In this document: positions 11,204-49,800 of the stretch, piece by piece
Numbering within the stretch: the stretch's first letter is position 1
How the letters are laid out: each line of letters starts with the position of its first letter
Program-made: the position numbers and the translations under genes
Virus record (IMG/VR): IMGVR_UViG_3300034104_001340
Coordinates: 1-57,080 of that record
DNA length: 57,080 nucleotides
Direction: 5' to 3' (one strand)
Source: a virus
Taxonomy: Duplodnaviria; Caudoviricetes
Notes under the pieces: model-generated
Told to the model about the DNA's origin: nothing
Databases searched by the model: none
What the model saw: only the letters and a program-made list of their open reading frames with translations

Positions 11204-11515
11204 CTAAGTGATAACTATCTTTACCGAGCCAATTGCCGGGATAAGCGCAGGGGTCGATACCGGCAAAGTAAGCTCTCTACTCTGCGGGTACCCAGTGAAA
11301 TCGGGTCTTGGGTTACGAATAGCTTGCGGATCACTGACCGGATACTCACCTAAATGCAGCTGAGGGTGGTCGGGGTTCCAGCATTCCGTACACGCGAGTA
11401 TGTTCGTATTTTTGCCCTTGATAATCAAGGCTTGCAGGTCGCGCAGCTTGTATCGGAAGCCGCACACATCGCACTCCGATATTGCCTTTTGACCTGAGGC
11501 GAACCTATTGGTCAC
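11204..11515 (-). CDS. Cys4 zinc-binding virion-module protein
   Basis: CDVC...CTEC pairs; PQAIRNPRPD. Confidence 0.7.
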   Translation of the reverse strand: MTNRFASGQKAISECDVCGFRYKLRDLQALIIKGKNTNILACTECWNPDHPQLHLGEYPVSDPQAIRNPRPDFTGYPQSRELTLPVSTPALIPAIGSVKIVIT

Positions 11516-11518
11516 GGC

Positions 11519-12223
11519 TTACCTCGGGAACATGACACGCGGGACGAAGCGAACCGCTGCCTTTTCACGATCTTCGCCAGCAGCCAGTTCAAACTGACGT
11601 TCATACTCGGTCTGCAGCATCGGAATGCGCTGCATCAAATCAGGCTCTTTCTGGGCGATATAGTACGCCAAACCCGCCACGAGGGCAGGGAAGAACCTGA
11701 AGTTCATATCCGGCGTCTGCACCCCTGCCCCAGCATCCTGAATACGCCGTAGGCGCCAATAGATCATCTGGTAGTATGGGGCGAGCAGGGTGCCTTGGTC
11801 AGGCACCGGCCATACGGTGACAGTGGGGTTGTCCCGGCCTCGGTCAATATAAACCTGAATCGGGCGCCCCTGCGTCTGCTTGTTGGGGATGCTTGAGTAC
11901 GTGGACACGCTGATACGCGAGATACTGAGGTCAGACTGCGTTGAGTAGTTACCCGCGCCCGTACGTATCACGTGCTCTAGCAGGTCGATGGTGTTGTCCG
12001 GGAGGTTATATGTGGCGGTGCCTTGAACAAGGTTAATAGACCCCTGCTCGATGGTCCACATGTTGATGCCACGGTTCTGCCACTCGATCGTCAGCAGGTT
12101 CATCGAACGACGCGCAGTACGCAGGTCGTAACCACTGCGCATTTCCCGTCCAGCACGCTCCCACGCTTCCTCGGCTATTTCCGTGAAGTCCATGTTGAAT
12201 GCGTATGTGCCGGACGTCGTCAT
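11519..12223 (-). CDS. Head-tail connector (adaptor)
   Basis: 234 aa; ARRSMNLL..EWQNRGIN.W...GRP...VWPVPD; adaptor position. Confidence 0.65.
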   Translation of the reverse strand: MTTSGTYAFNMDFTEIAEEAWERAGREMRSGYDLRTARRSMNLLTIEWQNRGINMWTIEQGSINLVQGTATYNLPDNTIDLLEHVIRTGAGNYSTQSDLSISRISVSTYSSIPNKQTQGRPIQVYIDRGRDNPTVTVWPVPDQGTLLAPYYQMIYWRLRRIQDAGAGVQTPDMNFRFFPALVAGLAYYIAQKEPDLMQRIPMLQTEYERQFELAAGEDREKAAVRFVPRVMFPR

Positions 12224-23446: not shown

Positions 23447-23476
23447 AGTGTATATGGGGGGTGGGGGGCTTTGCAA
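23447..23476 (-). promoter_or_regulatory. Possible late-operon promoter
   Basis: TTGCAA-18 nt-TACACT upstream of terS. Confidence 0.4.
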
Positions 23477-23690
23477 GCGCGGGTCCCTTGACGGGGGGTG
23501 TTTGCTGAGTTGAGGGGGGTGGGGTCTGGTGGAAAAAAGTGAGTTAGTGGGGGGAGGGGGGTTGCGTTGTAGCTACAAGAGGCTTGGCTTTGTAAAGTTA
23601 ACTTGGGGGGTGGGGTGGTGTGAGTGGGATAGTATGATAGATGGCGGGGGGGCTTTTGTCTGGGCAAAGGGGGGTGGGGTATGGGTGGGG
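23456..23690 (+). repeat. G-tract array (G6-T/A-G4-6)
   Basis: GGGGGGTGGGG at 23456, 23514, 23605 and 23669; GGGGGGAGGGGGG at 23549; further G runs in between. Confidence 0.9.
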
Positions 23691-23752
23691 TAAGCGCCCC
23701 CCTAACATTGTTATGGCGGAATCTACCAAAGCGCATATTGAATTACGATATG

Positions 23753-23761
23753 TGCTATAGT
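23753..23761 (+). promoter_or_regulatory. Extended -10 promoter candidate for the first early gene
   Basis: TGcTATAGT about 50 nt before ATG 23812. Confidence 0.45.
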
Positions 23762-23811
23762 GGTTACGTCATCAAGTCGATGGCATCCAGCAACTAACTA
23801 AGGGTAAGCAC

Positions 23812-24387
23812 ATGAAAGCAGATAAGAAAGTAGTAGCAGCAGAACAGGCCGCCGTTGCACTTAGCACCATCCTTATGGCCACGCGTGAGGCGGCAATCAA
23901 TGAGGCGGCGAATCAGTATGGCGCGCTCCGCAAGTATGCAGCTGCATGCAACGAACTGTTCGGCATCCTGCCAACCTTTGATGGTAAGTATTGGTTTAAC
24001 GTGGACGGTAATGCTAAAGGTTCAGAGTTTACCGCCATTCATGCTGAATGGGCCTTGTTTCGCGAGGGACTGGTAAACAATAAGTGCAAGAATGTTAGCG
24101 TATACCGCAAGCGCCTCCGCGAACTTGCCTATGCTGAATCCGGCCTTGCACCTGAAACCACCACCGAAATTGAAGGCGCTGAGGGTGAAGGCGCTGAGGG
24201 TGAAGGCGCCGGAGACAAGGCCCGTCCCATCAAAGGCCGTATGCTTGAGGAGTTGGGCAAACTGTACAAAGCCCGCTTCAACGAAAAGTATGCTAGCGAG
24301 ATCACGGATGAAATCCGCGCCGCAACCAAGCACATTGAACAGGCGCTGCTGGCACTTGGCGCCAACCTGAATGATCTGGTGAAGTAA
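23812..24387 (+). CDS. First early protein, unknown function
   Basis: 191 aa, helical; acidic linker encoded by a 15-bp tandem repeat (24171-24209). Confidence 0.8.
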   Translation: MKADKKVVAAEQAAVALSTILMATREAAINEAANQYGALRKYAAACNELFGILPTFDGKYWFNVDGNAKGSEFTAIHAEWALFREGLVNNKCKNVSVYRKRLRELAYAESGLAPETTTEIEGAEGEGAEGEGAGDKARPIKGRMLEELGKLYKARFNEKYASEITDEIRAATKHIEQALLALGANLNDLVK

Positions 24388-24394
24388 CCACACC

Positions 24395-24420
24395 GGGGCC
24401 ACGGATGGCCCCTTTCCTTT
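24395..24420 (+). terminator. Hairpin/terminator with a CACGGATG apex
   Basis: GGGGCCA-CGGA-TGGCCCC followed by TTTCCTTT. Confidence 0.65.
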
Positions 24421-24455
24421 ACCCCTAACATTGTTACCCCATTGGAGTTATACCC

Positions 24456-24872
24456 ATGTTTACACTTAACCAACCTGTATACGATAGCAGCTATAACCTT
24501 GTTACAGTCGAAGGCGCTACCGTTGATCTTTCCACCGTTGCCGCATGGTTTGCCGACTATGGCATCGACCGTTTCATGGTTTGCTTTGATGGCCACTTGG
24601 CGCAGGTTGAAGTATCTACCCACCCCAGTGTGCAAACCTGCTTGCAAGTAACTGTGCGCCGGGATGATACCGGGGAACCGATTGTAAGCATCAAGTACTA
24701 CATGGAGCTTCCTGTATCTCAGGCGCGCATTGAGTCTGCGCAGCACATTGCGCAGCATGCCGCATACATTGGTAGGTACTTTGCCACGCCGCCCACCGCT
24801 GAGAACCTCGACTCCATCGCGTACCACGCCCGCAAGATTGCGCACCTGCTTGACCAAATGCCCGCCAAGTAA
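24456..24872 (+). CDS. Early hypothetical protein
   Basis: 138 aa; GGAG RBS; flanked by identical 20-bp repeats. Confidence 0.75.
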   Translation: MFTLNQPVYDSSYNLVTVEGATVDLSTVAAWFADYGIDRFMVCFDGHLAQVEVSTHPSVQTCLQVTVRRDDTGEPIVSIKYYMELPVSQARIESAQHIAQHAAYIGRYFATPPTAENLDSIAYHARKIAHLLDQMPAK

Positions 24873-24899
24873 CCCACCCCTAACATTGTTACCCCTTCC

Positions 24900-24926
24900 A
24901 GCCCGGCCATTGTGCCGGGCTTTTTT
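24900..24926 (+). terminator. Intrinsic terminator
   Basis: GCCCGGC-CATTGT-GCCGGGC-TTTTTT. Confidence 0.85.
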
Positions 24927-24993
24927 GTGCCTGCGATTTCCTTACGTTGTACTCGCCCTAACATTGTTAGGCCTTGCGCCATGCAGCCCGCGC

Positions 24994-25061
24994 GCAGAGA
25001 CCAGTGACTTCGCAGGTGAGTGGGTTTCGGTGCTGCATGGTGTGCAGAGACCAGTGACTTC
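24994..25061 (+). repeat. 18-bp direct repeat, two copies
   Basis: GCAGAGACCAGTGACTTC at 24994-25011 and 25044-25061. Confidence 0.9.
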
Positions 25062-25185
25062 ACCCGTGGTAGGACTGCGCAACGAGGCCTAACAATGTTA
25101 GGGCTTGACAATGACGACCCACACACCCCTTTTACATAGTGCAAATCAAGGACTTACGCGAAGTTTGCGAATCGTTCTCACCTAG

Positions 25186-25480
25186 GCGTAAGAAAGTTAG
25201 GAAGCTAAAAACGGGTTCTTACGCGCTAAGTTGTTGATTTGGCTGAGGAATTGGTAATGTTAGAATGTAAGACAAAAAAAAGGGTATGAAACCTTACGTG
25301 TCAAGTTGTGCAACTTAGCACTGTCAATATATACAGTGTAAAGTCTCGCAGGGGGGTTATATACTTTTATCTTAAAAAGATGACATTCTAACATTACACA
25401 TTTTTACATAAGTAAATCAACAACTTGCAACCGAAAACGACGTAAGAAAACGCGTAGATTTTGCCCTCTTTTTCTTACAC
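25186..25480. promoter_or_regulatory. AT-rich nested inverted repeat with IHF-type sites; candidate origin/control region
   Basis: Mirror pairs 25254-25268/25383-25397, 25228-25240/25414-25426, 25216-25223/25441-25448 and 25186-25195/25471-25480. Confidence 0.65.
25321..25336. promoter_or_regulatory. LexA (SOS) box-like site
   Basis: CTGT-caatatat-ACAG fits CTGT-N8-ACAG with an AT-rich spacer. Confidence 0.6.
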
Positions 25481-25625
25481 TATTACGCAAATTCTCTTAC
25501 GCGCACTCCTGCCTCCACCTCGAACCCTATTCCTTACGTTGTAGTCTGATATACTGATTCACTTCCTTACGTTGTACTACACCGTAAGCTTTTTCCGTAT
25601 TCTGCAAACCGACCTCACAGAACAC

Positions 25626-25654
25626 TTGATCCATTCAGCTTTTTAGAGTATAAT
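25626..25654 (+). promoter_or_regulatory. Sigma70-type early promoter
   Basis: TTGATC-17 nt-TATAAT. Confidence 0.75.
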
Positions 25655-25744
25655 ATACAAAATGGAGTTATATCTGTACAGAACGCGATCTACCCAGTGC
25701 CAACCCCCCTAACAATGTTAGGCCCAACAACGAGGAGCAACGAG

Positions 25745-25894
25745 ATGAGCAACGACAAGACACTAGCAGAGCAGCTGCTGTTCCAACTGCAATTCATGGG
25801 CATGATGCTGATGGTTGGCAGACAAGAGGAGGCCGACACGGCATACCAGAAAGCACTCACTCTTGCAAAAGAGCTTATCAAGGCGGGGCACTAA
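25745..25894 (+). CDS. Small early protein
   Basis: ATG 25745 after GAGGAG; 49 aa. Confidence 0.6.
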   Translation: MSNDKTLAEQLLFQLQFMGMMLMVGRQEEADTAYQKALTLAKELIKAGH

Positions 25895-25896
25895 CC

Positions 25897-26112
25897 ATGA
25901 ACGACAACAGCACAGCAGTGTGCAGCGACTGCGGCGACACCTACAGCAAGGAGCGCTGGAAGCTTGGGTACTACACCTGCCACCCATGCGGCGAGGAGCA
26001 TGCAGTCAACGTGCGAGCCGGGTGGTGCATAGCGCCGATGAACAAGAGCAACTACATCCTGATAACCGACAGAGCAGTGCTGGCACAACTCAACCCCAAG
26101 AGGACAACGTGA
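25897..26112 (+). CDS. Cys4 zinc-finger protein
   Basis: CSDC...R..LGY.TCHPC...PMNKSNY. Confidence 0.75.
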   Translation: MNDNSTAVCSDCGDTYSKERWKLGYYTCHPCGEEHAVNVRAGWCIAPMNKSNYILITDRAVLAQLNPKRTT

Positions 26113-26375
26113 TGAAAGTATATGTACTGCTCGAAAGTAAATACGGAGGCTCGCTGGAGTTAGCAGGTGTCTACGCCACCCGAGGTGCAGCCGGTGAGGC
26201 TGTGATTGACTCGGTACAGGAGATGCGAGGTTGCGAATACAACTGCGAGGTGCAAGAGCGCGAGGTAGTCGAAGAAAAAGACCGTTGTATAGAGTGCGCG
26301 GTTGAGTTGGTTGACGGCGGGGGTTGGGGGTACTGCCCCACATGCGCGCCTCCGTGGAGGAAGTGTGATGAGTAG
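26112..26375 (+). CDS. Hypothetical protein with C-terminal zinc ribbon
   Basis: Start moved to ATG 26112 (MKVYVLL...GVYAT); CIEC...CPTC. Confidence 0.65.
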   Translation: MKVYVLLESKYGGSLELAGVYATRGAAGEAVIDSVQEMRGCEYNCEVQEREVVEEKDRCIECAVELVDGGGWGYCPTCAPPWRKCDE

Positions 26376-26432
26376 AACAAAACAACGCGAGATTCGGTAA
26401 ACCGAAACTAACTAACCAAGAGGAGCAACAAC

Positions 26433-27296
26433 ATGGGCTTTGGAATAGACGGACGTGACCTACCACTACTGCGTAGCTATGCGCGGGCGAAAGTGCAGTA
26501 CGACAGCATCGTGCCGATCAGGGGTACTAACAATGTTAGGCCACTAGGTGACAGGCGCAAGCATCACCAGCGCATAGAGGTAGCCAAGCGCAACGGAGCA
26601 GGTGCAGCAGGGTTGGCGTGCGTGCTGTACAGCACGGCGTGTGTGACTTACTACGAGGACGGGACGCTACATCTTGCACACGGCGGCTACATATCGCAAA
26701 GCACCTGCACATTCATCAACCGTGTAGCACCTGTCTCAGGTGTGCGGATGGACAAGCAGCGAGACTGCCTCGTGGTGCGCATCAATGGCGGTGAGTACAA
26801 GTGCGGCAAGGATGGGCTGTGGCTTAAGTATGACGAGACAGCCACGGGTTACAAGCCAATAGACCCCGAGCCGTTCAAGGTCACACTTGTCAACCGCGTT
26901 GCTATGCGCGAGGTGAAGAAGCAGTACGCTGCCTTCATGCAGTATGCCGTAGGTCTGGGCAAGCTGACGCAGTGGGACAGGCCTGAGAAGGAGGGCCACC
27001 GTTGGATAGATGAGGGGGACTTGCTCAACTGTATGCGGGGTGAGGACATAGATCAGTGGGCGTGGGCATACCCGAGACTCTTGCTGTCAGCAGGCTCGTA
27101 CCGCCAGAGCTTCGACTACCAAGCGGGGTACTGGAGGCGCGGGGACTCCCTGTGGGTGTGTGACAAGAAGCGACTCGATGCCCAGCTGACCCACATGGTG
27201 AAGAAGGCATATGCAAGCGAAGTGCTCGTGCGTGAGACGCTACCACTAGGTGTGCATAAGAAAGATGCAAACTATAGGTACAACCGGGAGGTGTGA
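26433..27296 (+). CDS. Early hypothetical protein
   Basis: 287 aa; GAGGAG RBS. Confidence 0.8.
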   Translation: MGFGIDGRDLPLLRSYARAKVQYDSIVPIRGTNNVRPLGDRRKHHQRIEVAKRNGAGAAGLACVLYSTACVTYYEDGTLHLAHGGYISQSTCTFINRVAPVSGVRMDKQRDCLVVRINGGEYKCGKDGLWLKYDETATGYKPIDPEPFKVTLVNRVAMREVKKQYAAFMQYAVGLGKLTQWDRPEKEGHRWIDEGDLLNCMRGEDIDQWAWAYPRLLLSAGSYRQSFDYQAGYWRRGDSLWVCDKKRLDAQLTHMVKKAYASEVLVRETLPLGVHKKDANYRYNREV

Positions 27297-27297
27297 G

Positions 27298-27426
27298 ATG
27301 AGCAACTGGAAACTGATAGCCCTAACATTGTTAGTCAGTATGGCGTTAGCGGCGGGCATTGCATGTGCAGTGTTCGTACTGTTCGCATTGGGTGACAGCA
27401 TCTTTGCTGTAGGGAAGGGGATGTAA
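27298..27426 (+). CDS. 42-aa hydrophobic membrane peptide
   Basis: MSNWKLIALTLLVSMALAAGIACAVFVLFALGDSIFAVGKGM; GGAGG RBS; below the ORF-track cutoff. Confidence 0.55.
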   Translation: MSNWKLIALTLLVSMALAAGIACAVFVLFALGDSIFAVGKGM

Positions 27427-27500
27427 CGGGGAGTTAAGTAGTAAAAGCAGTACCTAAACCAATGTAGGGTTTCCTACATTCAACCAACGAGGATACAAGC

Positions 27501-28577
27501 ATGACCGCACAATCAATCGCAACTGAGCGTTACACCGTAACTCTGGCACAGGCAGCGAGCCTTATCCTTGCTTGCCCGGGCAACAGATACTTCCTGCGTG
27601 GCGAGCCGGGCATCGGCAAGTCGAGCATCATCAAGGAGCTTCAAGCCAAGACAGGATATCGCGCAGCATACATCGACTGCCCCAACATGGACTTGGGTGA
27701 CATAGCAATGCCGGTGATCGACCATGAGAGTAGGACAACCAAGTACTACCCCAACGGGCGCTTTCAGCTGCAACACGGCGAGCCAGTCATCATCATGCTG
27801 GACGAGTTCACCAAGGCCGCTGACCCGGTGAAGAACATGCTGCACCCACTACTCGAAGTGCATAACCCGCGCTTGGGTGATGTGAGTCTGCCCGCAGGTA
27901 GCATCGTGTTCCTGACTGGTAACTTAGACAGTGACGGCGTGGGTGACTCCTTGCTTGCACATAGCAAGATGCGCGTAACCGAGGTAGAGGTCGGTAAGCC
28001 TGACTCCGACCAATGGTTGCAGTGGGCCTCGGGCGCTGGCATCGACCCGGCTGTGATGGCGTGGGTGTACCGCAACCCCCATGCGCTTGCTTCATACCGT
28101 GACGGTGACCAAGACGGCAACCCCTACATCTTCCATCCGAACAAGGTGCAAGGTGCTGTAGTCACGCCGCGTACGCTGGAGCTTGGGTCTAACATTGTTA
28201 GGGCACGTGAGAACTTCGATGCGGGGGCATTGCAGGCTGCGCTTGTGGGTACGATCGGTGCCGCAGCTGCGGGTAGCTTGGCTGCCTTCATTGCACATCA
28301 GGACTCACTGCCGCCGTACGAGCAGATCATCAAGCATCCTGATACGACCAAGGTGCCCGAGGAGCCGGGTGCGCTTAGCGTTCTTGTCTTTGGTGCCATC
28401 GAGAGGATCAAGCATAGAGACGAGGTCACGGCGCTGCTCAAGTACTTCGGGCGTGCAGATGTCGAGTGGCAGACTATCTTCAACGTGACGCTGGTGCGCA
28501 ACAAGACCAAGGCTAGCTTCGGATACAACTGCAAGGCGTTTGCTGATTGGGTCACCAAGAATCAGGACTTGCTGTAA
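27501..28577 (+). CDS. MoxR-like AAA+ ATPase
   Basis: Walker A GEPGIGKS, Walker B IIMLDE, sensor TGN, TPRT. Confidence 0.88.
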   Translation: MTAQSIATERYTVTLAQAASLILACPGNRYFLRGEPGIGKSSIIKELQAKTGYRAAYIDCPNMDLGDIAMPVIDHESRTTKYYPNGRFQLQHGEPVIIMLDEFTKAADPVKNMLHPLLEVHNPRLGDVSLPAGSIVFLTGNLDSDGVGDSLLAHSKMRVTEVEVGKPDSDQWLQWASGAGIDPAVMAWVYRNPHALASYRDGDQDGNPYIFHPNKVQGAVVTPRTLELGSNIVRARENFDAGALQAALVGTIGAAAAGSLAAFIAHQDSLPPYEQIIKHPDTTKVPEEPGALSVLVFGAIERIKHRDEVTALLKYFGRADVEWQTIFNVTLVRNKTKASFGYNCKAFADWVTKNQDLL

Positions 28578-28599
28578 CCACAACTACGAGGAACAAAAC

Positions 28600-29874
28600 A
28601 TGAACGCAGCGGTTGAGCTGGACAAAGTAGAACGCAAGTACAAGCGGGTGCGCATCTCCATCATGCGTGATGCAACCTTCATGGCGGTAGGGCCGGTGAT
28701 GCGGCTCGGCAAGCAGTACATCGTGGATGACTTCCCGACAGCGTGTACTGACGGTGTGAACGAGAGATACGGGCGTGCCTTCGTGCGCGCATTGGAGGAG
28801 AAGCCCCTCGGGTTTGTGATATTGCATGAGACTTACCACAAGCTGTGCAGGCACATCAGTATCTATCGCAAGCTGTGGGAGGAGGATGCATGGCGAGCCA
28901 ACATGGCGACTGACTATTGGATCAACCTGAAGCTGGACAAGCTGAGCAAGACCTGCAACCTGCTCGAGATGCCACGCTACACCGAGGCACTGCTGGCACT
29001 GCTCACACCCAAGCAGCGGGCTGCGCTTGATGCAGAAGGTAAGGGGCTGGGGGATTACTTCGGCTTACTTGACTACAAGTATGACGGCATGACTGTGGTT
29101 GAGATATTTAGGGCACTGAAAGAAGAACAGAAGGAGCGCGGGGAGGGTGGTGAAGGCGAAGGCCCGAGCGGCTTCGATGACCACGACTGGGAAGGTGGTG
29201 ACTCCATACCCAAGGAGGAGCAGGAGAAGATGCGCGAGGAAGTTGAGCGTGCTATCCGTGAGGGCCAGATGCTTGCCAAGAAGTACGGCGCAGACTCGGC
29301 AGGTGCAGAGTTGGGCTTCGATGATCTGCTTAAGCCCAAGGTGGACTGGCGTGCGCAGCTGCGTGACTTCGTGCGTAGCACATGCCGCAAGATGGAGCAG
29401 AGCACATGGCGTAGGCCCAACAGGCGCTTCCTGCACCAAGGCATCATCATGCCCACCATGCAAGGCAAGCAGATCAAGTCGCTCGGTGTATGCGTGGATG
29501 CGTCAGGCTCGATGTTCTGTGGTAGCCCTACGCCGTTCAAGCGTGTGATGAGCGAGATTGATGGGCTGACCAAGCAGTTGGGTATCGACACGCTGCACTT
29601 GATCTACTGGGATGGTGCTGTGTGCGCACATGAGACGTACACGCCGACATCGGTAGGTGGCTGGCTCAAGGCAACGCAGCCGCGTGGGGGTGGGGGTACT
29701 GACCCCGCGTGTATCTCCCCGTGGCTTAAGGAGAAGGGCATCAAGCTGGATGCAGCTGTGGTGCTGACTGATGGCGAGGTGCCGGGTTGGGGGCAGTGGA
29801 CGGTGCCGGTGCTGTGGCTCATTACGGGCAAGGCAACGGCGAGTGTGGGTAAGACTATTCGTGTGGAGGACTGA
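28600..29874 (+). CDS. DUF2201-like HExxH metallopeptidase plus vWA domain protein
   Basis: PTACTDG, LHETYH, MIDAS DASGSM, GGGGTD, VLTDGE; start moved to 28600. Confidence 0.85.
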   Translation: MNAAVELDKVERKYKRVRISIMRDATFMAVGPVMRLGKQYIVDDFPTACTDGVNERYGRAFVRALEEKPLGFVILHETYHKLCRHISIYRKLWEEDAWRANMATDYWINLKLDKLSKTCNLLEMPRYTEALLALLTPKQRAALDAEGKGLGDYFGLLDYKYDGMTVVEIFRALKEEQKERGEGGEGEGPSGFDDHDWEGGDSIPKEEQEKMREEVERAIREGQMLAKKYGADSAGAELGFDDLLKPKVDWRAQLRDFVRSTCRKMEQSTWRRPNRRFLHQGIIMPTMQGKQIKSLGVCVDASGSMFCGSPTPFKRVMSEIDGLTKQLGIDTLHLIYWDGAVCAHETYTPTSVGGWLKATQPRGGGGTDPACISPWLKEKGIKLDAAVVLTDGEVPGWGQWTVPVLWLITGKATASVGKTIRVED

Positions 29875-29876
29875 GT

Positions 29877-30128
29877 ATGAAAGTGAAGATGAACATAGGT
29901 GGGCGTAGCTTGGTGGTGCCAATGGAGACCGCCGAGGAGATCATGGAGCTTGCGTTCCGTTACGGAGAGGAGTGTGAGCAGAAGTGGAACCGCGCTGTGG
30001 ATGGCGTAGAGGCTTACTACTCCACGCATGTGTACGAGATCAACCCATCGGAGTTCAAGTTCTCGCTGGACGTTATTACAGAAGGGCAGTATCAGATGTA
30101 CAAGTTGGCAGGCAAACCTAAAAACTAA
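29877..30128 (+). CDS. Hypothetical protein
   Basis: 83 aa; GGAGG RBS. Confidence 0.7.
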   Translation: MKVKMNIGGRSLVVPMETAEEIMELAFRYGEECEQKWNRAVDGVEAYYSTHVYEINPSEFKFSLDVITEGQYQMYKLAGKPKN

Positions 30129-30142
30129 ACGAGGATACACGT

Positions 30143-30490
30143 ATGAAAGACGGTCGCAAAAACAAGACGTTCAAAACTGTATGCAGTCAGAACATGAAGT
30201 CCCTGTGGAGCACTATGGCACCAGAGGAGCGAGCTGTACGGCTGGAGAAGATGCGCATAGCAAGAGACGTTGCACGCGCAGCGAGGAAAGCTGCGAAGCA
30301 AGAGGTCGCAGTTGTTCAAGTAGAGCAGCTGGCGTTGCCGTTGGTGCAGCAGGAGTACACGCCATCCACTCACGCGATGGAGGAAGCAATGGCAGCACTA
30401 GACATCCTTGTACAGGTAACGAGTACCGTGCTTGGGGTGACACTGAACCAACAACAGGCCGCTGAGTTCTGGGCCAACAGACTGAAGTAA
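30143..30490 (+). CDS. Hypothetical protein with basic N-terminus
   Basis: 115 aa; conserved leader AACTAAACGAGGATACAC. Confidence 0.7.
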   Translation: MKDGRKNKTFKTVCSQNMKSLWSTMAPEERAVRLEKMRIARDVARAARKAAKQEVAVVQVEQLALPLVQQEYTPSTHAMEEAMAALDILVQVTSTVLGVTLNQQQAAEFWANRLK

Positions 30491-30500
30491 GGAGAAGCAC

Positions 30501-30890
30501 ATGGGGTACAGAAGTAGCATCAAAGCGGCGTTCTACCCGCAGAAAAACGAGGACTTTGCGCTTATCAAACTGTGGGTGGACGAGCACATCATGAGGACGC
30601 AAGACTTTTGGCCCTACCGCATAGCGAAGCGGAGTGGGTCTAGGTTCATCTTGTTCGAGATTGATGACGTTAAGTGGTACGACAACTTCCCAGAGGTGAT
30701 TGCTTTCAACAATGCGTTAGTCGAGTTCGAGGATATGTTCGGAAATGGAAAAGACACTGACGCACCTAGGGCTTTTATGGAGTTTATCCGACTTGGTGAA
30801 GACCCTACTGATGTAGAAGAACGCAGCTCGGATAGCTTTGAAGTGCTGCAGCTGGTGCGGCACATGAACGTAGACGAAGACGTAGAGTAA
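30501..30890 (+). CDS. Conserved phage hypothetical protein
   Basis: MGYRS...VKWY...FIRLGEDPTD. Confidence 0.75.
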   Translation: MGYRSSIKAAFYPQKNEDFALIKLWVDEHIMRTQDFWPYRIAKRSGSRFILFEIDDVKWYDNFPEVIAFNNALVEFEDMFGNGKDTDAPRAFMEFIRLGEDPTDVEERSSDSFEVLQLVRHMNVDEDVE

Positions 30891-30915
30891 CAACCAACTA
30901 AACGAGGATACACAT

Positions 30916-31767
30916 ATGAGCATTGCAGCAAGCGCAGTACTGGTAAAGCTGTCCATTAGCACGTGGACGGCCAACAAGATCGACCGGGTGCAGACTGACC
31001 GTGTACTGGCAGACAACAACGCCAGCAACAGGGCAGCGCAGGTACGCAAGAACCTCATGGCAGGTACGCAGAAGATCAAAGGCCTAGTGGACTTTGCGCA
31101 GCACTGTCGAAATGAGAATTACAGGCTCACGTTGCCATGGGAGGACAGGGGCAACCGCCTGCTGCCAACCAGCTTGTTCCTCGACTACAAGGCCAAGATG
31201 AATGGGTACAAGAACCAGTTCATCCAGATGCGTGGCGACATCGCGTACAACTACGATGCCTTGCAGCAGACGGCGCGCAACTACCTCGGGGATATGTACG
31301 ATGCAGCAGACTACCCCGGTGTGGACGAGGTGATTAGTAAGTACGATTGGCAGCTGACGTTCAGCCCGGTGCCCGATGCAGGCCACTTCTACCTCGACAT
31401 CCCGGCCAGCGAGCTGGAGGAGGTGAAGCAGTCACTCAACGTGGAGAACGACCTGCGACTTAAGGACGCAACGCGCACGGCGTGGGACAGACTGCACACA
31501 CTGTTGGAAGGCATGACGGGCAAGCTGGCTGAGACTGACGAGGGCAAGACCAAACGCTGGCACGATAGCTTTGTGACCAACGCATCGGAGTTGTGCTCCA
31601 TGCTTACGCACCTCAACGTAACCCGAGACCCGGAGCTTGAGCGTGCAAGACGTATGCTTGAGGCTTCCATTGCTGGCGTGCAAGTTGATACACTCAAGGT
31701 ATCGCCTGTCGCAAGAGAGAACCTCAAGGGCAAGGTGGACGACATCATCAAACAGTTCGAGTGGTGA
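30916..31767 (+). CDS. DUF3150-like helical protein
   Basis: LVKLSISTW...TLPW...RLLP...YP...LNVTRDPEL; lies near the MoxR/vWA pair. Confidence 0.7.
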   Translation: MSIAASAVLVKLSISTWTANKIDRVQTDRVLADNNASNRAAQVRKNLMAGTQKIKGLVDFAQHCRNENYRLTLPWEDRGNRLLPTSLFLDYKAKMNGYKNQFIQMRGDIAYNYDALQQTARNYLGDMYDAADYPGVDEVISKYDWQLTFSPVPDAGHFYLDIPASELEEVKQSLNVENDLRLKDATRTAWDRLHTLLEGMTGKLAETDEGKTKRWHDSFVTNASELCSMLTHLNVTRDPELERARRMLEASIAGVQVDTLKVSPVARENLKGKVDDIIKQFEW

Positions 31768-31771
31768 GTAC

Positions 31772-32230
31772 ATGATGGAGTATGAGTTCGTAATACAAGA
31801 CATAGACACTGTGATGGGGGGCTTGAAAGCAACGCTCCCTGACGACTTCCACCGCGCTATGGACATGCGCGTGGTGCAGATGGCTGAGCACTTCTACACC
31901 GTAGCTGAGCTACTGGAGTTACCCGACAAGGATGTCGAGGCGCTGGCTGAGCAACTAAGTATCGCACTACTCAACAAGCAGGTGAAGGATGCGTGGTACT
32001 CAGGCAAAGGCAAGGTGTTCATCCGTGGGCCTGAGCTGTGGAGTGTGTATATACCAAGAGCACCCACTAGCAGGCAGGCTATATACAAGCCAGACGAGGT
32101 GCCGACTGAGTGGCGCAGGCAGTTGGGTATGCTACAGCTATTGGAAGGGCGGCGTACTCTGCTGAAGGACTGTGGCTACCGACATGACGACAAGGTGTTT
32201 TACTTACTGGAGGCAGAAGATGGAGCTTAA
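31772..32230 (+). CDS. Hypothetical protein
   Basis: Start moved to ATG 31772, just after the upstream stop. Confidence 0.65.
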   Translation: MMEYEFVIQDIDTVMGGLKATLPDDFHRAMDMRVVQMAEHFYTVAELLELPDKDVEALAEQLSIALLNKQVKDAWYSGKGKVFIRGPELWSVYIPRAPTSRQAIYKPDEVPTEWRRQLGMLQLLEGRRTLLKDCGYRHDDKVFYLLEAEDGA

Positions 32231-32468
32231 GAACAGTGCAGGGTACTCAGTTAATGTGGGTTCGCTGGTCAGAGATACGGCGGGCGTGGAGTATCGAGTT
32301 GAGGATATAACCGCTACGCAGGTGCACGTAGTGACAACTAATCCCCCGCGCAGACAGCGCAGGTGCAAGCCAGCTGAGTTGGGGTTGGTAGTGGCGTCAC
32401 ACACCGCAGACAGGACTAAGTTTGACTTAGCGCGGCAGAAGCTGCGCAGTTATTGGGAGAGCGAATAA
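32220..32468 (+). CDS. Small beta-rich hypothetical protein
   Basis: ATG 32220 after GGAGG. Confidence 0.6.
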   Translation: MELKNSAGYSVNVGSLVRDTAGVEYRVEDITATQVHVVTTNPPRRQRRCKPAELGLVVASHTADRTKFDLARQKLRSYWESE

Positions 32469-32469
32469 C

Positions 32470-32664
32470 ATGGCGCGAGGTAAGCAGAAGGAGCCAACGT
32501 GGGTGCATATCAACATCCGCGTTCCACAAGGGGTGTACGAGTACTTCTCGCAGTCTCCGAATATGTCCGAGGCTATACGTGAAGTACTAAGCGCATACGT
32601 TAATACCCCTAACAATGTTAGGGGGCCCACACAACAGGAGGCAGAAGATGGCGACGACACCTGA
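32470..32664 (+). CDS. Ribbon-helix-helix (Arc/CopG-like) DNA-binding protein
   Basis: Strand VHINIRVP followed by two helices (NMSEAIREVLSAYV). Confidence 0.65.
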   Translation: MARGKQKEPTWVHINIRVPQGVYEYFSQSPNMSEAIREVLSAYVNTPNNVRGPTQQEAEDGDDT

Positions 32665-42639: not shown

Positions 42640-43568
42640 TGAGTAACGACGTATCTATCTTTAACAACCGCAACGCAGTCGGTGTGCGTTCTGAGCAGCG
42701 CCTGACTAAACTGGGTCAGACCCTCGCGTCCTCATCCACCTCGCGCCGCATCCAGTGCAACATCAACGGCACGTTCAAGAAGCTGGTGAATGGCGAGCAG
42801 ATCGGTAACTCGGTGCGTGGCACCATCAACGTCATCATCATCGCTGCGCAGCCCAAAGTATCCCGCGTGTACTACGCTGGTAAGTACGACCCGAACGCCG
42901 AGGCTACGATGCCCAACTGCTGGTCCAACGCAGGTGATGTACCAGAAGCTTCAGCTACTGACAAACAACATGACAACTGTGCTGAGTGCCCGATGAACAT
43001 CAAGGGTTCCGGTGACAACGGTGGCCGCGCCTGCCGCTTCCAGCGCCGTGTCTCTGTGCTGCTTGAGGGCGACACTACGGGCGACATCTACCAGATGAGC
43101 ATCCCGTCCAAGTCGCTGTTCGGTAAGGGATCAGGCAACGTGCACCCCTTCGAGGGCTACGTGAAGTTCCTCGTCGCCAACGGCGAGTCCCCGGATACTG
43201 TAGTGACCACAGTGGCGTTTGATGATGAAGTCGAAGGTATGGAGCTTGTGTTCTCCCCCAGCCGCCAAGTAGAGGACGTGGAGTTTGCGCTGGTGCAAAA
43301 AGCACAGGCCCGTCCGGAAGCTGAGATGTACACGCGTATCACAGTGGCGCAGGTAGACGGCGCTACCAAAGAACCTAAGCCCCGCGCTGCAGCTGAGCCT
43401 GAGCCGAAACCAGAGCCCAAGGCAAAGGTGCAACGTTCGGACGACCCTGATGACGCCATTGAAGAACCGAAGAGGCGCGCAGGTAGGAAGCCCACTGAGG
43501 AAGCCCCTGTTACCCCTGCACCCAAGGCCGACCTTGCTGCTGCTATCGCTGAGTGGAGTGATGACTAA
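42639..43568 (+). CDS. Putative ssDNA-binding protein
   Basis: Beta-rich with CWS...CAECP...GRAC; charged flexible tail ending WSDD. Confidence 0.6.
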   Translation: MSNDVSIFNNRNAVGVRSEQRLTKLGQTLASSSTSRRIQCNINGTFKKLVNGEQIGNSVRGTINVIIIAAQPKVSRVYYAGKYDPNAEATMPNCWSNAGDVPEASATDKQHDNCAECPMNIKGSGDNGGRACRFQRRVSVLLEGDTTGDIYQMSIPSKSLFGKGSGNVHPFEGYVKFLVANGESPDTVVTTVAFDDEVEGMELVFSPSRQVEDVEFALVQKAQARPEAEMYTRITVAQVDGATKEPKPRAAAEPEPKPEPKAKVQRSDDPDDAIEEPKRRAGRKPTEEAPVTPAPKADLAAAIAEWSDD

Positions 43569-46653: not shown

Positions 46654-46828
46654 TTACAACATCAACTGGACGGAGTTTAAGGTGGGGGCGTCGTTCTTTG
46701 TCCCCTGCCTTCACCCACCCTCTGCTTGGCAAGAGATGCTCCCCACCCTCAGACGCTTGCGTTACAAAACTGTACACAAGGTAGTCATTGAGGGCGGGGT
46801 GCGAGGCATCCGGGTGTGGCGGGTTTAG
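46634..46828 (+). CDS. Small DNA-binding-like protein
   Basis: FKVGASFFVP...GIRVWR. Confidence 0.65.
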   Translation: MLVERVSYNINWTEFKVGASFFVPCLHPPSAWQEMLPTLRRLRYKTVHKVVIEGGVRGIRVWRV

Positions 46829-49800
46829 TCTTCTCGGAACTCACCGGGGCGCAACATTGGGTACAAGAACGGCGCCAACCTGTCAGTCATATCCACCCCA
46901 AGTATCGACATAGCTCTGACGCGGGCTTTACCATCCACTGACTTGAGTATAGTGTCGTTTTCGATTGGGAAGAACGCATTTACTAGGTTGAACTCTGTTA
47001 TCTCTCGTGCGTACTCCTCCCATGCAGTGCGCTTGGCTGTGTCCAGAGGGGCGTCAACGTAAGCGCGGAGTACACGATCCGCCTTAGCTATAATGCGGTT
47101 GCGCTCCCCCTCTATCTCTTGCTTCATCTGGTTGGCAAGAATACCAGCTTTCTGCAACTCCGCCTCAGTTGTACTCTGGAACCCTAACCCACGGAACAAC
47201 AACTTGGTCGTAGTATAGAACTCACGATCCATGATGACGTCACCTTGGCGCGTGAGCTGCCCTTCTTGGCTTTGGCGGTAGGAGCTGAGTAACCCACGGA
47301 ACATAGCAGGGGAGAGTTTCTCCCACCCGCGCAAGGTCTGCCCCTCCTCGAAGTCGTCCATCGCTGCAGCTATGTTGCTGCCCATTGAGAACAACGGGCC
47401 ACCGAACTTCAACGCAAACGCTTCAAACGCGCCGCGAGCCGTGTCCGAAGGAGTATCATCTGAAAACCACAGCCCGTTCAACTCGGTGGAAACTGCAACG
47501 TTCAAGTCCGTCAGAGCAGATATAGGCCCAAACTCCGCTCCCCGACTAAGCGCCTCTGCTTGTGTGCCGGACAATCCGAGTGCATTGGCAAAGTCGCTCC
47601 CCGGACCGAAGTACTGGTTAAGGAACCAGCTGCGGAACCATAGGTCAGAATTCATCCTACCAAGGGGATTAGATGGGTCGTACAAGTCGCGGAAGGCTTC
47701 CATGTCATCATCGTCTTCCATGTCAGCGCGAAGTGATTCTTTATAGGCGTCGAGTAGCCCCATCATGGCCCCGTACAACGGCAAACCAGTCGCACCAGCA
47801 AACAGCGCAGTCATCCCGACCGTACCAAACAGCAGCTGCGCGCTCTCTTTACGCGTACTACCCGGGCTGGCTTTAATCAGCCCCCACGAGTTGCGTATCA
47901 AGTACGACGTCATCTGCAGTGGGAACGTCATGAACTGAAACGCTATGCGACCCAACGGCGCCCGGAATAGACTAGGCTTATTGAACTGGGAGTAGTTGAA
48001 CAGGCCTTCTTTGATGAGCTTTTCGGCCTCTACCACGGCACTGCGGAACGCGTCCTTGGGGTCCATCTTCTTGGCGATAGCTGCGTCATAGGCGAGCTCA
48101 AACGCTGACATGCCCATAACCTCACGCGCCAGTCGCTCCGTGTGATGGAACAACCCAGACATAAAGTTAGTGACAGTGCGTAAGCTGAACAGCCCGTCTT
48201 GACTTGCTGTGGGGGCTCGACCGCGTTCGGTAAGGTCGCTGATGTACGTCTGCATGTATACACCGCGATTCTCCAACTCCTCCCACGCGTCTGCCAATAC
48301 CTTACGCTTGTTGGCGTCGGGGTTCTTCGTGATGTAGTCGGAGTTCTGTATGGACGGCGCGCCCCACTCGGTGACAACCCTGCCGTTTTGGTCAGACCGC
48401 GTAGTGCTCAAGGTCTTGAACACATTCAGGTGCTTAACTGCCATGGCCATGGACTTACCCCAGCCGTACTTGCGGGCCAACACAGGTAATCCTACGATCG
48501 GCAGCTGCGTGAACTGAATCAACGCCGTCTTAGGGGACGTCATCATGTAGTAGAACACCAGCTTGTTACCCATCGAGGCAAACTGATCTACGATGTCATC
48601 GGGAGAAGCAGGGTTCATCTCTAGCTGCACCCTACGGCGTACCTCATTTACGACGGTCTGCAAGCGCATGTCGTCCTCACCGCGCCCTTTTAGCTCGCCT
48701 TGCGCGCTGGAGAGCGCCAACTCGATAGCGTCACGGTACTTGAGCCGCGCCAACTGGTTTATCGCCGTAGTCTGAGTGGAGGCGTAGTTGCGCAAGGCGT
48801 CAGTGTTAAAGCCTGTCTTAGCCTTACGGCGGATGAACCTGCGCCGCATGGAGGAGTCGGGCAGTGTATACAGGTAAAGCTGGTACACATCACTTTTCAG
48901 CTGGGCTACGTCCTGCGTGCCGCCTTTGCCGATGAGATCGAATATGTTTTTCAACATGCTACTGGATGCAGTACCTGTGGCGGACTCTTTGCGCAAAGAC
49001 TCCAGATCATTACCGCGATCCATTTCCTCATCGGTCAACAACTCACCAAGGGTCTTACCCTGCTCGCGGGCCAACCGCTTGGCAAACACGTCCCGATCTA
49101 CACCAGACTCGAACATGTAGAACGCACCCTTTTTCCCCTTACCCACCCGCAGCCAGTAGTTGCCGTAACGAACCAGCGGGAAGTACACCCCGATCTTCTT
49201 GGCTTCAGCAAAGTCCGCGTTGATTTTAGCCAGCAACTGCGACTTGCCCGCAGCATCCATGGAAGAGTTTGCGATCATCTGCTCAAGTGTAGCGAGGCTT
49301 TCATCCAACATACGGACGTAGTCATCCCGCGCCATCTGGAATATCTCGATGCCGCGCTTGCCGCCCTGCTTCTCCAGTTTATCCTTCAGCTGGTACACAA
49401 ACTTGAAGTCGTTCTCACGCTTGGTGATGTTGCCTTTGACCACAGCTTTCTGCGCTTTGGACAGTGTGGGGTCCTGCAGCTTCTTCTGTAACTTATCCAT
49501 CTCCTCGTCGGCAGCAAGGGCGGCGGTAATCGTCGTATGCACCGTAGGGTCCGCGTTCAGTAGTGTAGTGGCGTACATCAAGTTTCCCAGTGTGCGCCCC
49601 GCTTCTGGCTTTTCTTTCTGCCACGTAGCCCACCCGTTGACCCGCTCAAACAACCCACGCATCTCCTTGTTACGGAACGCGTGCATATCATCCACGCGGT
49701 CAGGTACGTTCTTGAGATTATTGAGCCTATTTCCTGCGATACGGATAACATCGTCAGTGGTGAACACCCGCAGGATAGCGTTGAGGGAGCCGACTGCAAT

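Follow-up and report, generated by a model that had tools for sequence, protein, structure and literature searches.

The window considered here is the whole of the IMG/VR virus record IMGVR_UViG_3300034104_001340 (Duplodnaviria; Caudoviricetes), 57,080 nucleotides (nt) in length and 91% complete. Its genes are arranged in two opposed groups: leftward late genes, among them those for the large terminase, portal, head and tail, occupy 1-23.4 kb and 46.8-57 kb, and rightward early and replication genes fill the interval from 23.8 to 46.8 kb. The early part of that interval holds ten copies of a 15-bp palindrome, CCTAACAWTGTTAGG, first pointed out in a preliminary description of the same DNA. The present analysis concerns what these sites are, how they are placed in this phage and its relatives, and which protein may read them.

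Ten palindromic sites in one block

When up to two mismatches are allowed, the 15-mer is matched ten times, at 23701-32622, and nowhere else across the entire 57,080-nt record; shuffled sequences yield a mean of 0.07 matches with a maximum of 1, and the pattern read backwards, as a control, has 0 matches in the record. The shorter core CTAACAWTGTTA gives 17 strand matches that fall at 10 places, against a mean of 0.00 over 100 shuffles. Four of the copies are perfect, four carry one mismatch and two carry two mismatches (Table 1). Isolated half-sites, of which there are 17 in the 57 kb, show no enrichment. Six of the ten sites are crowded into 23.7-25.7 kb, and four lie within open reading frames (ORFs), where translation confirms that they encode TNNVR, LTLL, SNIVR and PNNVR; the last of these, in the frame of a small gene of the ribbon-helix-helix (RHH) kind, is retained in two relatives of 95% identity. 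None of the promoter-like sites found in the window is overlapped. The preliminary description had claimed ten sites at these places and none elsewhere, four of them coding, with the greatest density at 23.7-25.7 kb and with most copies standing clear of obvious promoters, and all of this is confirmed.

Table 1. Sites, candidate reader genes and transcription signals of the early block
Feature	Position	Strand	Match or composition	Context
Site 1	23701..23715		CCTAACATTGTTATG, 1 mismatch	directly after G-rich repeats; 97 nt upstream of g1 start
g1	23812..24387	+	191 amino acids, all-helical, no known family	between sites 1 and 2
Terminator-like hairpin and T-run	24395..24412	+		3' of g1
Site 2	24424..24438		CCTAACATTGTTACC, 2 mismatches	17 nt upstream of ATG 24456
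Site 3	24879..24893		CCTAACATTGTTACC, 2 mismatches	6 nt past stop of second early gene; terminator next
Terminator-like hairpin and T-run	24900..24921	+		downstream of site 3
Site 4	24957..24971		perfect	with site 5 forms a 20-nt perfect inverted repeat
Site 5	25088..25102		perfect	start of 600-nt AT-rich non-coding stretch
Sigma-70-like promoter	25626..25654	+	TTGATC-17-TATAAT, 10/12	54 nt from -10 to start of site 6
Site 6	25708..25722		perfect	leader, 22 nt upstream of ATG 25745
Site 7	26526..26540		1 mismatch	within gene 26433-27296, coding for TNNVR
Site 8	27321..27335		1 mismatch	within small membrane ORF 27298-27426, coding for LTLL
Site 9	28188..28202		1 mismatch	within ATPase gene, coding for SNIVR
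RHH protein gene	32470..32664	+	64 amino acids, Arc/Mnt/BrnA kind	holds site 10
Site 10 (last)	32608..32622		perfect	3' end of RHH gene; 25 nt upstream of Hjc-like nuclease ATG 32648

The array as a family trait

The array is a property of a phage family and not of a single record. Through the ATPase whose gene holds site 9, 263 relatives were confirmed in IMG/VR, of which the best 80 loci were examined, together with a second set of 75 new loci. At least three copies of the same kind of palindrome are present in 74 of the 80 loci. The motif takes the form CTAACA-N1-TGTTAG in 44 of these, as in the window, and CTAACA-N2-TGTTAG in 24 (hereafter the N1 and N2 types), with CTGACA-N2 in 4, GTAACA-N2 in 1 and ATAACA-N1 in 1. 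One of the six other loci carries CTTATA-NN-T(A/G)TAAG at five homologous places, and the second set adds clades with ATAAC-N3-GTTAT and GTAAC-N3-GTTAC, in arrays of up to 25 sites. Such switches of a whole array between lineages argue for a phage-encoded reader, a conclusion drawn from the lineage-specific motif variants. The fully covered unique arrays (n=28) contain between 11 and 25 sites (median 18) and have a median span of 12.2 kb. All five complete genomes, of 60-66 kb, hold their 10-16 sites within one block of 8.9-12.6 kb, so that the restriction to the early block proposed in the preliminary description is found both here and in these relatives, and the motif itself has proved to be conserved.

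Arrays can also be lost. Among three genomes that are 84-87% identical, one has 7 sites and each of the two others has 1; the closing site is identical in all three. The six lost sites differ by about 4-6 substitutions each, and their flanks are mostly 80-95% identical. This many substitutions per lost site (L018, L019) could reflect relaxed constraint combined with codon preference, and no positive selection is claimed.

Selection on double-stranded half-sites

Site 9 offers a direct view of what is being conserved. The SNIVR peptide of the ATPase is kept family-wide, and only 2 of its 864 synonymous encodings form the site. The peptide is nonetheless spelled as CTAACATTGTTAG in 33 of 34 unique N1-type genes, as against 6 of 24 N2-type genes and 1 of 8 genes from few-site genomes, so that the position of site 9 is conserved among N1-type relatives by way of fixed synonymous codons. 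Judged by these codons, selection is at the level of the nucleotides and not of the protein, as the preliminary description had surmised from the coding copies; the conservation at synonymous positions in relatives that it looked to is thereby found.

The pattern of change in the two arms bears on whether the sites are read as DNA or as RNA. At the outer pair of 754 unique sites, both consensus bases are present in 552, the left alone in 99 and the right alone in 89. The remaining 14 have neither, as against about 15 predicted for arms that change independently, and 6 of the 14 are complementary. The inner pair behaves similarly, with A..A in 49, T..T in 24 and a complementary double change in 1. 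The preferences of the two arms are mirror images, and there is no wobble bias. Independent and mirror-symmetric change in the arms indicates that the reader recognises half-sites on double-stranded DNA and not a hairpin. In one relative the spacer varies freely among AAT, ATT, AAA and TTT, and at the spacer centre both orientations occur (A in 216 and T in 166 N1 sites) with a bias that depends on context. Folded as RNA, 2 of the 10 window sites do not fold and 2 fold weakly, the perfect copies reaching -5 to -12.6 kcal/mol, and an Rfam search returned nothing above chance. As far as these comparisons of sequence go, the conserved object is a pair of half-sites, CTAAC and GTTAG, separated by an A/T-rich spacer that measures 3 bp in the window and 4 bp in sister lineages.

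Placement relative to genes, promoters and terminators

The sites are far from randomly distributed within the block. Only 24% of the N2 and 58% of the N1 sites lie inside ORFs, compared with 86% of random positions, and many are found at translation starts (90/116 AA-centred N2 sites and 92/173 A-centred N1 sites, versus 23% of controls), where the start codon falls inside the motif, behind a Shine-Dalgarno sequence, in 40 of the N2 and 37 of the N1 start sites. The orientation of the spacer follows this division: N2 sites at translation starts are AA-centred in 87 cases versus TT-centred in 5, T-centred sites mostly lie away from translation starts, and the downstream gene families (orthogroups) comprise 75 that are mostly A-centred, 33 that are mostly T-centred and 19 that are tied. 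Among 28 TT-centred N2 contexts that were inspected, about 18 show a GC-rich hairpin with a T-run within ~40 nt and then a TTGACA promoter.

Strong promoters inside arrays never overlap a site (0/93 unique), and for 79 of the 93 a site lies 20-110 nt downstream of the -10 element, at a median of 55 nt. Internal terminators are present in the early block. After the last site comes a terminator and then a fresh consensus promoter with no sites behind it; 34 unique promoters begin 16-66 nt past the last site. This placement fits control of transcription, and a stoperator-like silencing role, one of several suggested in the preliminary description, is compatible with a layout of sites at translation starts, after promoters and before the closing terminator.

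A phage that depends on the host polymerase

The ATPase (27501-28577) and its DUF2201-type neighbour resemble gp24 and gp25 of phage N4 at ~20-27% identity, and the only cultured phages that match the ATPase are N4-like. Searches of the window with N4 proteins by tblastn recover gp24, gp25 and, weakly, gp21; the N4 polymerase subunits have no match in the window. A virion protein of 2041 amino acids (46825-52950, minus strand) does sit at the position of the N4 virion RNA polymerase, its family keeps an HExxH motif, and a PHROG labelled 'virion RNA polymerase' matches it. Alignment with N4 gp50 by hhalign is confined to residues 2213-2322, an HExxH zincin-like domain (probability 74.5%), and the polymerase domain of gp50 lies at residues ~1000-2100. 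The best match of the giant protein's profile in the PDB is an internal virion protein, the next phage protein being an ejection protein; phmmer against the PDB found nothing; and the protein combines an LPD39 domain with a C-terminal half that corresponds to the PLxRFG/DarB-like region of 60-kb podophages. These matches suggest an ejection protein from which the polymerase was always missing or has been lost. In relative L087 the giant protein is 91% identical, and the early region is not in that locus.

With no phage RNA polymerase and with sigma-70-like promoters present, the phage must use the RNA polymerase of its host. The 24 sequencing runs listed as containing the region are all of DNA, from lake-water or unlabelled metagenomes. 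No integrase and no helix-turn-helix (HTH) immunity repressor was detected among the ORFs scanned, which took in the small ORFs in part, and no tRNAs were found. A megablast search of the early region against cultured phages gave no match; the window's DNA polymerase shares 37% identity with its counterparts in Rhizobium phage RHph_TM3_14A and Pseudomonas phage KPP25. The latter, among the nearest cultured relatives by this measure, has no palindrome array. A different repeat, AAAATTTCGTAACA, occurs in two non-coding regions of KPP25 (L125), at 11400-11830 and 43260-43550.

Two candidate proteins

Both proteins that the preliminary description had named first as possible readers, the RHH protein and the first early protein (g1), are singled out by family-level evidence.

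Of the early-block proteins scanned, only the RHH protein was recognised as having a DNA-binding fold. All first-set loci with at least 7 kb of downstream sequence contain it (49 of 49), its gene there being the next-to-last before the closing site and the last site usually lying 440-830 nt past it; so do 68 of 71 unique array genomes, the family model missing 3 of the 71. This constant next-to-last position implies that the protein is made last. The family consensus reads KGRGxGKKPAL-xTSLRLP-EVMDYF...KQAKMREVLTEYV. In a comparison with 48,161 structure chains, the 50 best matches of the model are almost all RHH proteins (among them Arc, Mnt, omega, CopA, ParD, ParR and AmrZ, with Z of 2.0-3.2), and ParG is also among the structural look-alikes. 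The AlphaFold2 monomer places helices at residues 20-27 and 32-45 after an extended and confident segment (pLDDT 83-93), the strand itself not being formed. Sequence profiles point in the same direction: Pfam BrnA_antitoxin matches a relative only (E 1.8e-4, 22.3 bits against a cut-off of 26.1), RHH_1 matches at E 0.03-0.18, below its curated cut-off, JGI names the homologs as DUF4415 family, and the single PDB sequence match of the profile is 2q2k_A at E 0.071, presumably the ParR-centromere complex of plasmid pSK41. Foldseek with the model gave no match at E<=0.001 and four weak rows (E>=5) that include an RHH regulator and TCP domains. A predicted homodimer complex (score 0.39, mark 0.42) is not evidence either way.

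The claim of g1 is one of co-occurrence. Among unique array genomes with at least 6 kb of upstream sequence, 58 of 59 encode it, and neither the two array-less genomes (L019, L196) nor the two few-site genomes (L036, L077) do, a co-occurrence with Fisher p 0.0016 in which phylogeny is not corrected for; the four genomes without g1 come from perhaps 3-4 lineages. Its family profile finds nothing even at E<=10 in L019, L196, L018 and L189, and it found 5 of 5 positive controls. Other ORFs occupy its place in L019 and L196, that of L196 being unrelated to it. Bracketing by sites is a family-wide feature: the preceding site ends a median of 11 nt before the g1 frame, and a median of 35.5 nt separates the g1 stop from the following site, which begins within 120 nt in 61 of 68 cases. 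No informative match was obtained for g1 in PHROGs, Pfam, a PDB profile search or a protein atlas; Foldseek gave E>=1.6, and structure alignment returned generic helical bundles only, with Z<=5.6. An atlas lead (0.80) to the 'Streptomyces phage repressor c' was rejected, since hhalign against the phiC31 repressor c has a probability of 0.2%; a search of 34 g1 members for Pfam Phage_Repressor_c found none. Relative L141 carries two copies of g1-family genes, at 1601-2185 and from 3401 onward.

Proposed mechanism and its rivals

The reading to which we give somewhat better than even credence is that of a roadblock operator array, comparable to stoperators or to the conserved inverted repeats (CIRs) of phage phiC31, with the RHH protein as the likeliest candidate reader. 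Starting from the sites, their conservation, the selection on DNA, their placement and an RHH-like fold, we infer binding, a reader and a roadblock effect of the following kind. The palindromes would be operators on double-stranded DNA for a phage-encoded protein, and would mark the one block of the genome that host sigma-70 RNA polymerase transcribes first. One site stands ~45-55 nt downstream of each strong early promoter, others at gene junctions and starts, and the last just before the terminator that closes the block. Once bound, the protein may stop RNA polymerase soon after initiation and again within operons, such that the early block would be shut or throttled while the next operon, sigma-70-dependent, free of sites and carrying replication genes, would keep running. 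In such a scheme g1 would be tied to the array as a cofactor, as the main controlled gene or as an alternative reader.

Several observations sit uneasily with this roadblock model. A symmetric dimer does not account for the preference for A in the coding-strand spacer at gene starts, a preference explained in part by strand composition and the use of an internal ATG as start codon. The 1-bp change in spacing between N1 and N2 types is unusual for a rigid dimer, and a roadblock at site 1, upstream of the first early promoter, would have nothing to block. The evidence for an RHH fold is weak in absolute terms, given Z<=3.2, Foldseek E>=5 and Pfam scores below cut-off. Among phages with an identical CTAAC motif, the RHH residues predicted to face the DNA differ (the first being C, H, N, S, A, Y or L and the second S or N, with R fixed), and inspection of about 100 sequences by eye found no code relating residues of the strand to bases of the motif variants. 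Moreover, array-less genomes retain the RHH protein (2 of 2, L019 and L189), and its presence tracks the array less well than that of g1.

This last comparison brings forward the possibility that g1 is itself the reader or effector. In that case g1 would load at the sites and act on RNA polymerase during elongation, perhaps as a processive antiterminator, or would serve as an activator, with the RHH protein as an unrelated local regulator. We regard this as unlikely, if worth serious attention. Its presence with arrays (58/59 vs 0/4) and its bracketing by sites speak for such a role, as do the terminators internal to the block, through which antitermination would carry transcription, and the distance of ~45-55 nt past promoters at which loading sites for elongation factors such as nut, qut and ops lie. 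Those loading sites are strand-specific, however, unlike palindromes that work in either orientation; antitermination from the site right before the closing terminator would defeat that terminator; g1 shows no similarity to DNA- or RNA-binding proteins by Pfam, PDB profile, Foldseek or structure alignment; and its absence is recorded in only 4 genomes from perhaps 3-4 lineages. A structural mark is a decidedly less probable account; on this view the first-entering DNA would be bridged, condensed, protected or helped inwards by an array-bound protein, in the style of parS/ParB, ParR or matS/MatP. A pure mark need not follow promoters (79/93), gene starts and a closing terminator as these sites do, the arrays are dispensable in some relatives, and no ParA or ParM partition ATPase, ParB or MatP was seen among the proteins scanned, despite the confinement of the array to one block beside G-rich repeats at the divergent junction, a 6-1-6 geometry like that of matS, and the presence of ParR, ParG and omega among the RHH look-alikes (PDB match 2q2k_A, E 0.071). 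A search of the PDB with the RHH profile found no MatP chain at E<=10. The positioning function of parS/matS type that the preliminary description entertained has found no support among the proteins scanned, and the sites are not evenly spread but follow promoters, gene starts and a terminator.

The remaining alternatives turn on RNA, on the host or on a virion polymerase. An RNA hairpin in early messages, serving as a translational operator or processing site by ribosome-binding sites, would explain why so many sites stand at translation starts (N2 AA 90/116, N1 A 92/173), often with the start codon inside the motif, and why the coding strand favours A at the centre, and the perfect copies can indeed fold (-5 to -12.6 kcal/mol). 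It is nevertheless quite improbable, because the arms show no compensation (at the outer pair, 188 sites are altered on one side and 6 carry a complementary double change) and no wobble bias, the loop varies freely, 2 of the 10 window sites remain unfolded, Rfam gives no match, sites in the opposite orientation such as the ATPase site and the closing site are equally conserved, and site 1 lies upstream of the first promoter. A host transcription factor, with the phage sites as decoys or as borrowed host regulation, is still harder to credit: although the phage proteins are candidate readers only and a marine Dinoroseobacter metagenome-assembled genome carries the 15-mer four times within longer palindromes, the arrays switch motif and spacing between closely related phage lineages, close relatives of 84-87% DNA identity differ by 7 sites to 1, and the other prokaryote matches listed are scattered singles in unrelated taxa (2-4 copies in a few taxa), near chance by estimate. 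No host lead emerged among the matches listed, and of the further readers named in the preliminary description neither a host protein, against which the lineage-specific motif variants point to a phage-encoded one, nor an ejected virion protein has gained support. The exact 15-mers of the Dinoroseobacter genome lie on three long contigs (L270 1551-1688, L233 and L263), the two copies on L270 forming the centre of longer palindromes between Lrp-like and P450 genes; the element is probably unrelated to the phage array. Least probable of all, to the point of rejection as far as sequence can tell, are hairpin promoters of the N4 type, which would serve an RNA polymerase carried in the virion. In geometry, a stem of 6 bp with a loop of 3 nt matches the N4 early promoters, as seen in the N4 sequence, the gp24/gp25-like gene pair and the overall layout are shared with N4, and a PHROG named for the virion RNA polymerase matches the giant protein; that match, however, is to the HExxH domain outside the polymerase (gp50 2213-2322), the best profile match of the protein is an internal virion protein, phmmer against the PDB and the N4 polymerase subunits gave nothing, the stems do not covary over 754 sites, 2 of 10 window sites do not fold, sites follow Shine-Dalgarno sequences, and consensus sigma-70 promoters drive the block.

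A further and more speculative function may be considered. The array and its reader could serve an immunity-like exclusion among lytic phages, in which a resident phage would silence the early block of later arrivals with the same motif. We think this improbable, but not negligibly so. Exclusion of this kind would favour motif switches (N1, N2, CTGACA, GTAACA, ATAACA, CTTATA) and the erasure of sites, as where 6 of 7 are rewritten between genomes that are 84-87% identical, and g1 would then be a second component (an anti-repressor, an elongation factor or the site reader) whose gains and losses accompany those of the array.

Neighbouring repeats and other early-region features

The early region holds further repeats besides the palindromes. 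G-rich repeats (TGGGGGGTGGGG and similar, ~8 copies on the plus strand) occupy 23455-23690, at the divergent late/early junction before site 1, and G-runs precede the first site in relatives too; these may represent genome ends, a packaging signal or G-quadruplexes. The AT-rich non-coding stretch 24938-25579 contains a second repeat family, with 8 of the window's 17 YCTTACGY matches at 24940-25572 and three copies of TTCCTTACGTTGTA; iterons, an origin or the sites of another protein could all account for the YCTTACGY repeats. The inverted repeat formed by sites 4 and 5 (24955-25104) encloses 110 nt with a direct repeat, GCAGAGACCAGTGACTTC, present twice and 50 nt apart. At 25897-26375 are two small early proteins with CxxC...CxxC zinc-ribbon motifs, the first of which, 71 amino acids long, is kept in 51 of 80 loci. 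Among relatives, L074 (1038-1620) and L077 (6508-7054) carry a tandem unit of ~19 nt containing AAAAATAGGCA in 7-9 copies upstream of the early block, and L193, a relative without g1, has 12 of its locus's 14 half-site-like AATGTTAT repeats within ~1.1 kb of non-coding DNA at 4486-5640.

Comparison with known systems

One of the two closest parallels is provided by the stoperators of cluster A mycobacteriophages, more than 20 copies of a 13-bp site for one phage repressor. They lie at promoters and in the short gaps between genes, and a block of initiation as well as of elongation has been proposed for them (PMC9283540). The present sites resemble the stoperators of L5 gp71 and its relatives in their many copies and in their enrichment outside ORFs and at gene junctions. 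They differ in that stoperators are asymmetric, orientation-dependent and genome-wide, whereas here a palindrome with both centre orientations is restricted to the early block and is also fixed 45-55 nt past sigma-70 promoters. The reader differs as well, a monomeric two-domain HTH immunity repressor of temperate actinophages in the one case and a candidate RHH protein of an apparently lytic podophage in the other. Stoperator specificities in cluster A reportedly also diversify between lineages.

A second parallel is phiC31, whose repressor c binds the CIRs. The phiC31 record contains the perfect palindrome CCTACTCACGTGAGTAGG at no fewer than 15 intergenic places, and like the sites described here it is highly conserved and repeated at gene junctions. 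In contrast, phiC31 is temperate and its repeats are genome-wide; the motif, its length and the host phylum are different; and its repressor, of 683 amino acids, is unrelated to g1 (hhalign 0.2%) and unlike the 64-residue RHH protein.

The candidate reader itself resembles Arc and Mnt of P22, omega, CopG, ParR and BrnA in its size, its probable strand-helix-helix layout and its putative strand of the form x-N/S-x-R-x-P. That strand is HINIRVP here and is like those of Arc and Mnt. Sequence similarity to the Arc/Mnt/BrnA group is below family cut-offs. Members of the RHH class bind DNA as dimers of dimers, on short palindromes or on arrays of repeats. The known regulators among them serve a compact centromere or no more than a few promoters, in contrast to the 10-25 sites over 12 kb found here. 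The domain-wide arrays of matS/MatP and parS/ParB, in which a 13-bp palindrome of 6-1-6 geometry is repeated over a defined stretch of DNA, differ in sequence, and the placement here is tied to promoters, gene starts and the terminator. An exact match to the core of the site is known from MtvA, a small dimeric antitoxin of plasmid pPAD8, whose operator, proven by gel shift and abolished for binding by mutation of one arm, is the 11-bp palindrome TAACATTGTTA (PMC11826091). The phage core is identical to it; MtvA, however, is MazE-like and not RHH, it acts at a single autoregulatory plasmid site, and no MazE/AbrB-like protein was detected among the proteins scanned in the phage block, so that the match is probably a coincidence.

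A search of the literature on phage palindrome or early-operator arrays and on the motif strings, supplementary files lying outside it, found no description of this array; the papers listed for the motif strings include none on phage arrays and none that contains the 14-mers. The suggestion of an undescribed system therefore stands in part: the array was not found described in print, but operator arrays at gene junctions are a known kind, as stoperators and the phiC31 CIRs exemplify. The array also makes a concrete and inexpensive test system (a site of 13-15 bp, a protein of 64 and one of 191 amino acids), and the family supplies its own natural experiments in motif and spacing switches, array loss and the fixation of synonymous codons, making it a good case for the joint change of specificity in a DNA-binding protein and dozens of sites. 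These N4-related genomes lack a virion RNA polymerase and need some other timing of early genes. What sets this array apart from stoperators and the phiC31 CIRs is its restriction to the early block, its fixed distance past sigma-70 promoters and, probably, an RHH reader. If the proposed mechanism is true, it would extend the logic of many operators inside operons, known only from temperate actinophages with their L5 stoperators and phiC31 CIRs, to podophages of lake water, a large and apparently lytic family, so far uncultured, that relies on the sigma-70 polymerase of the host.

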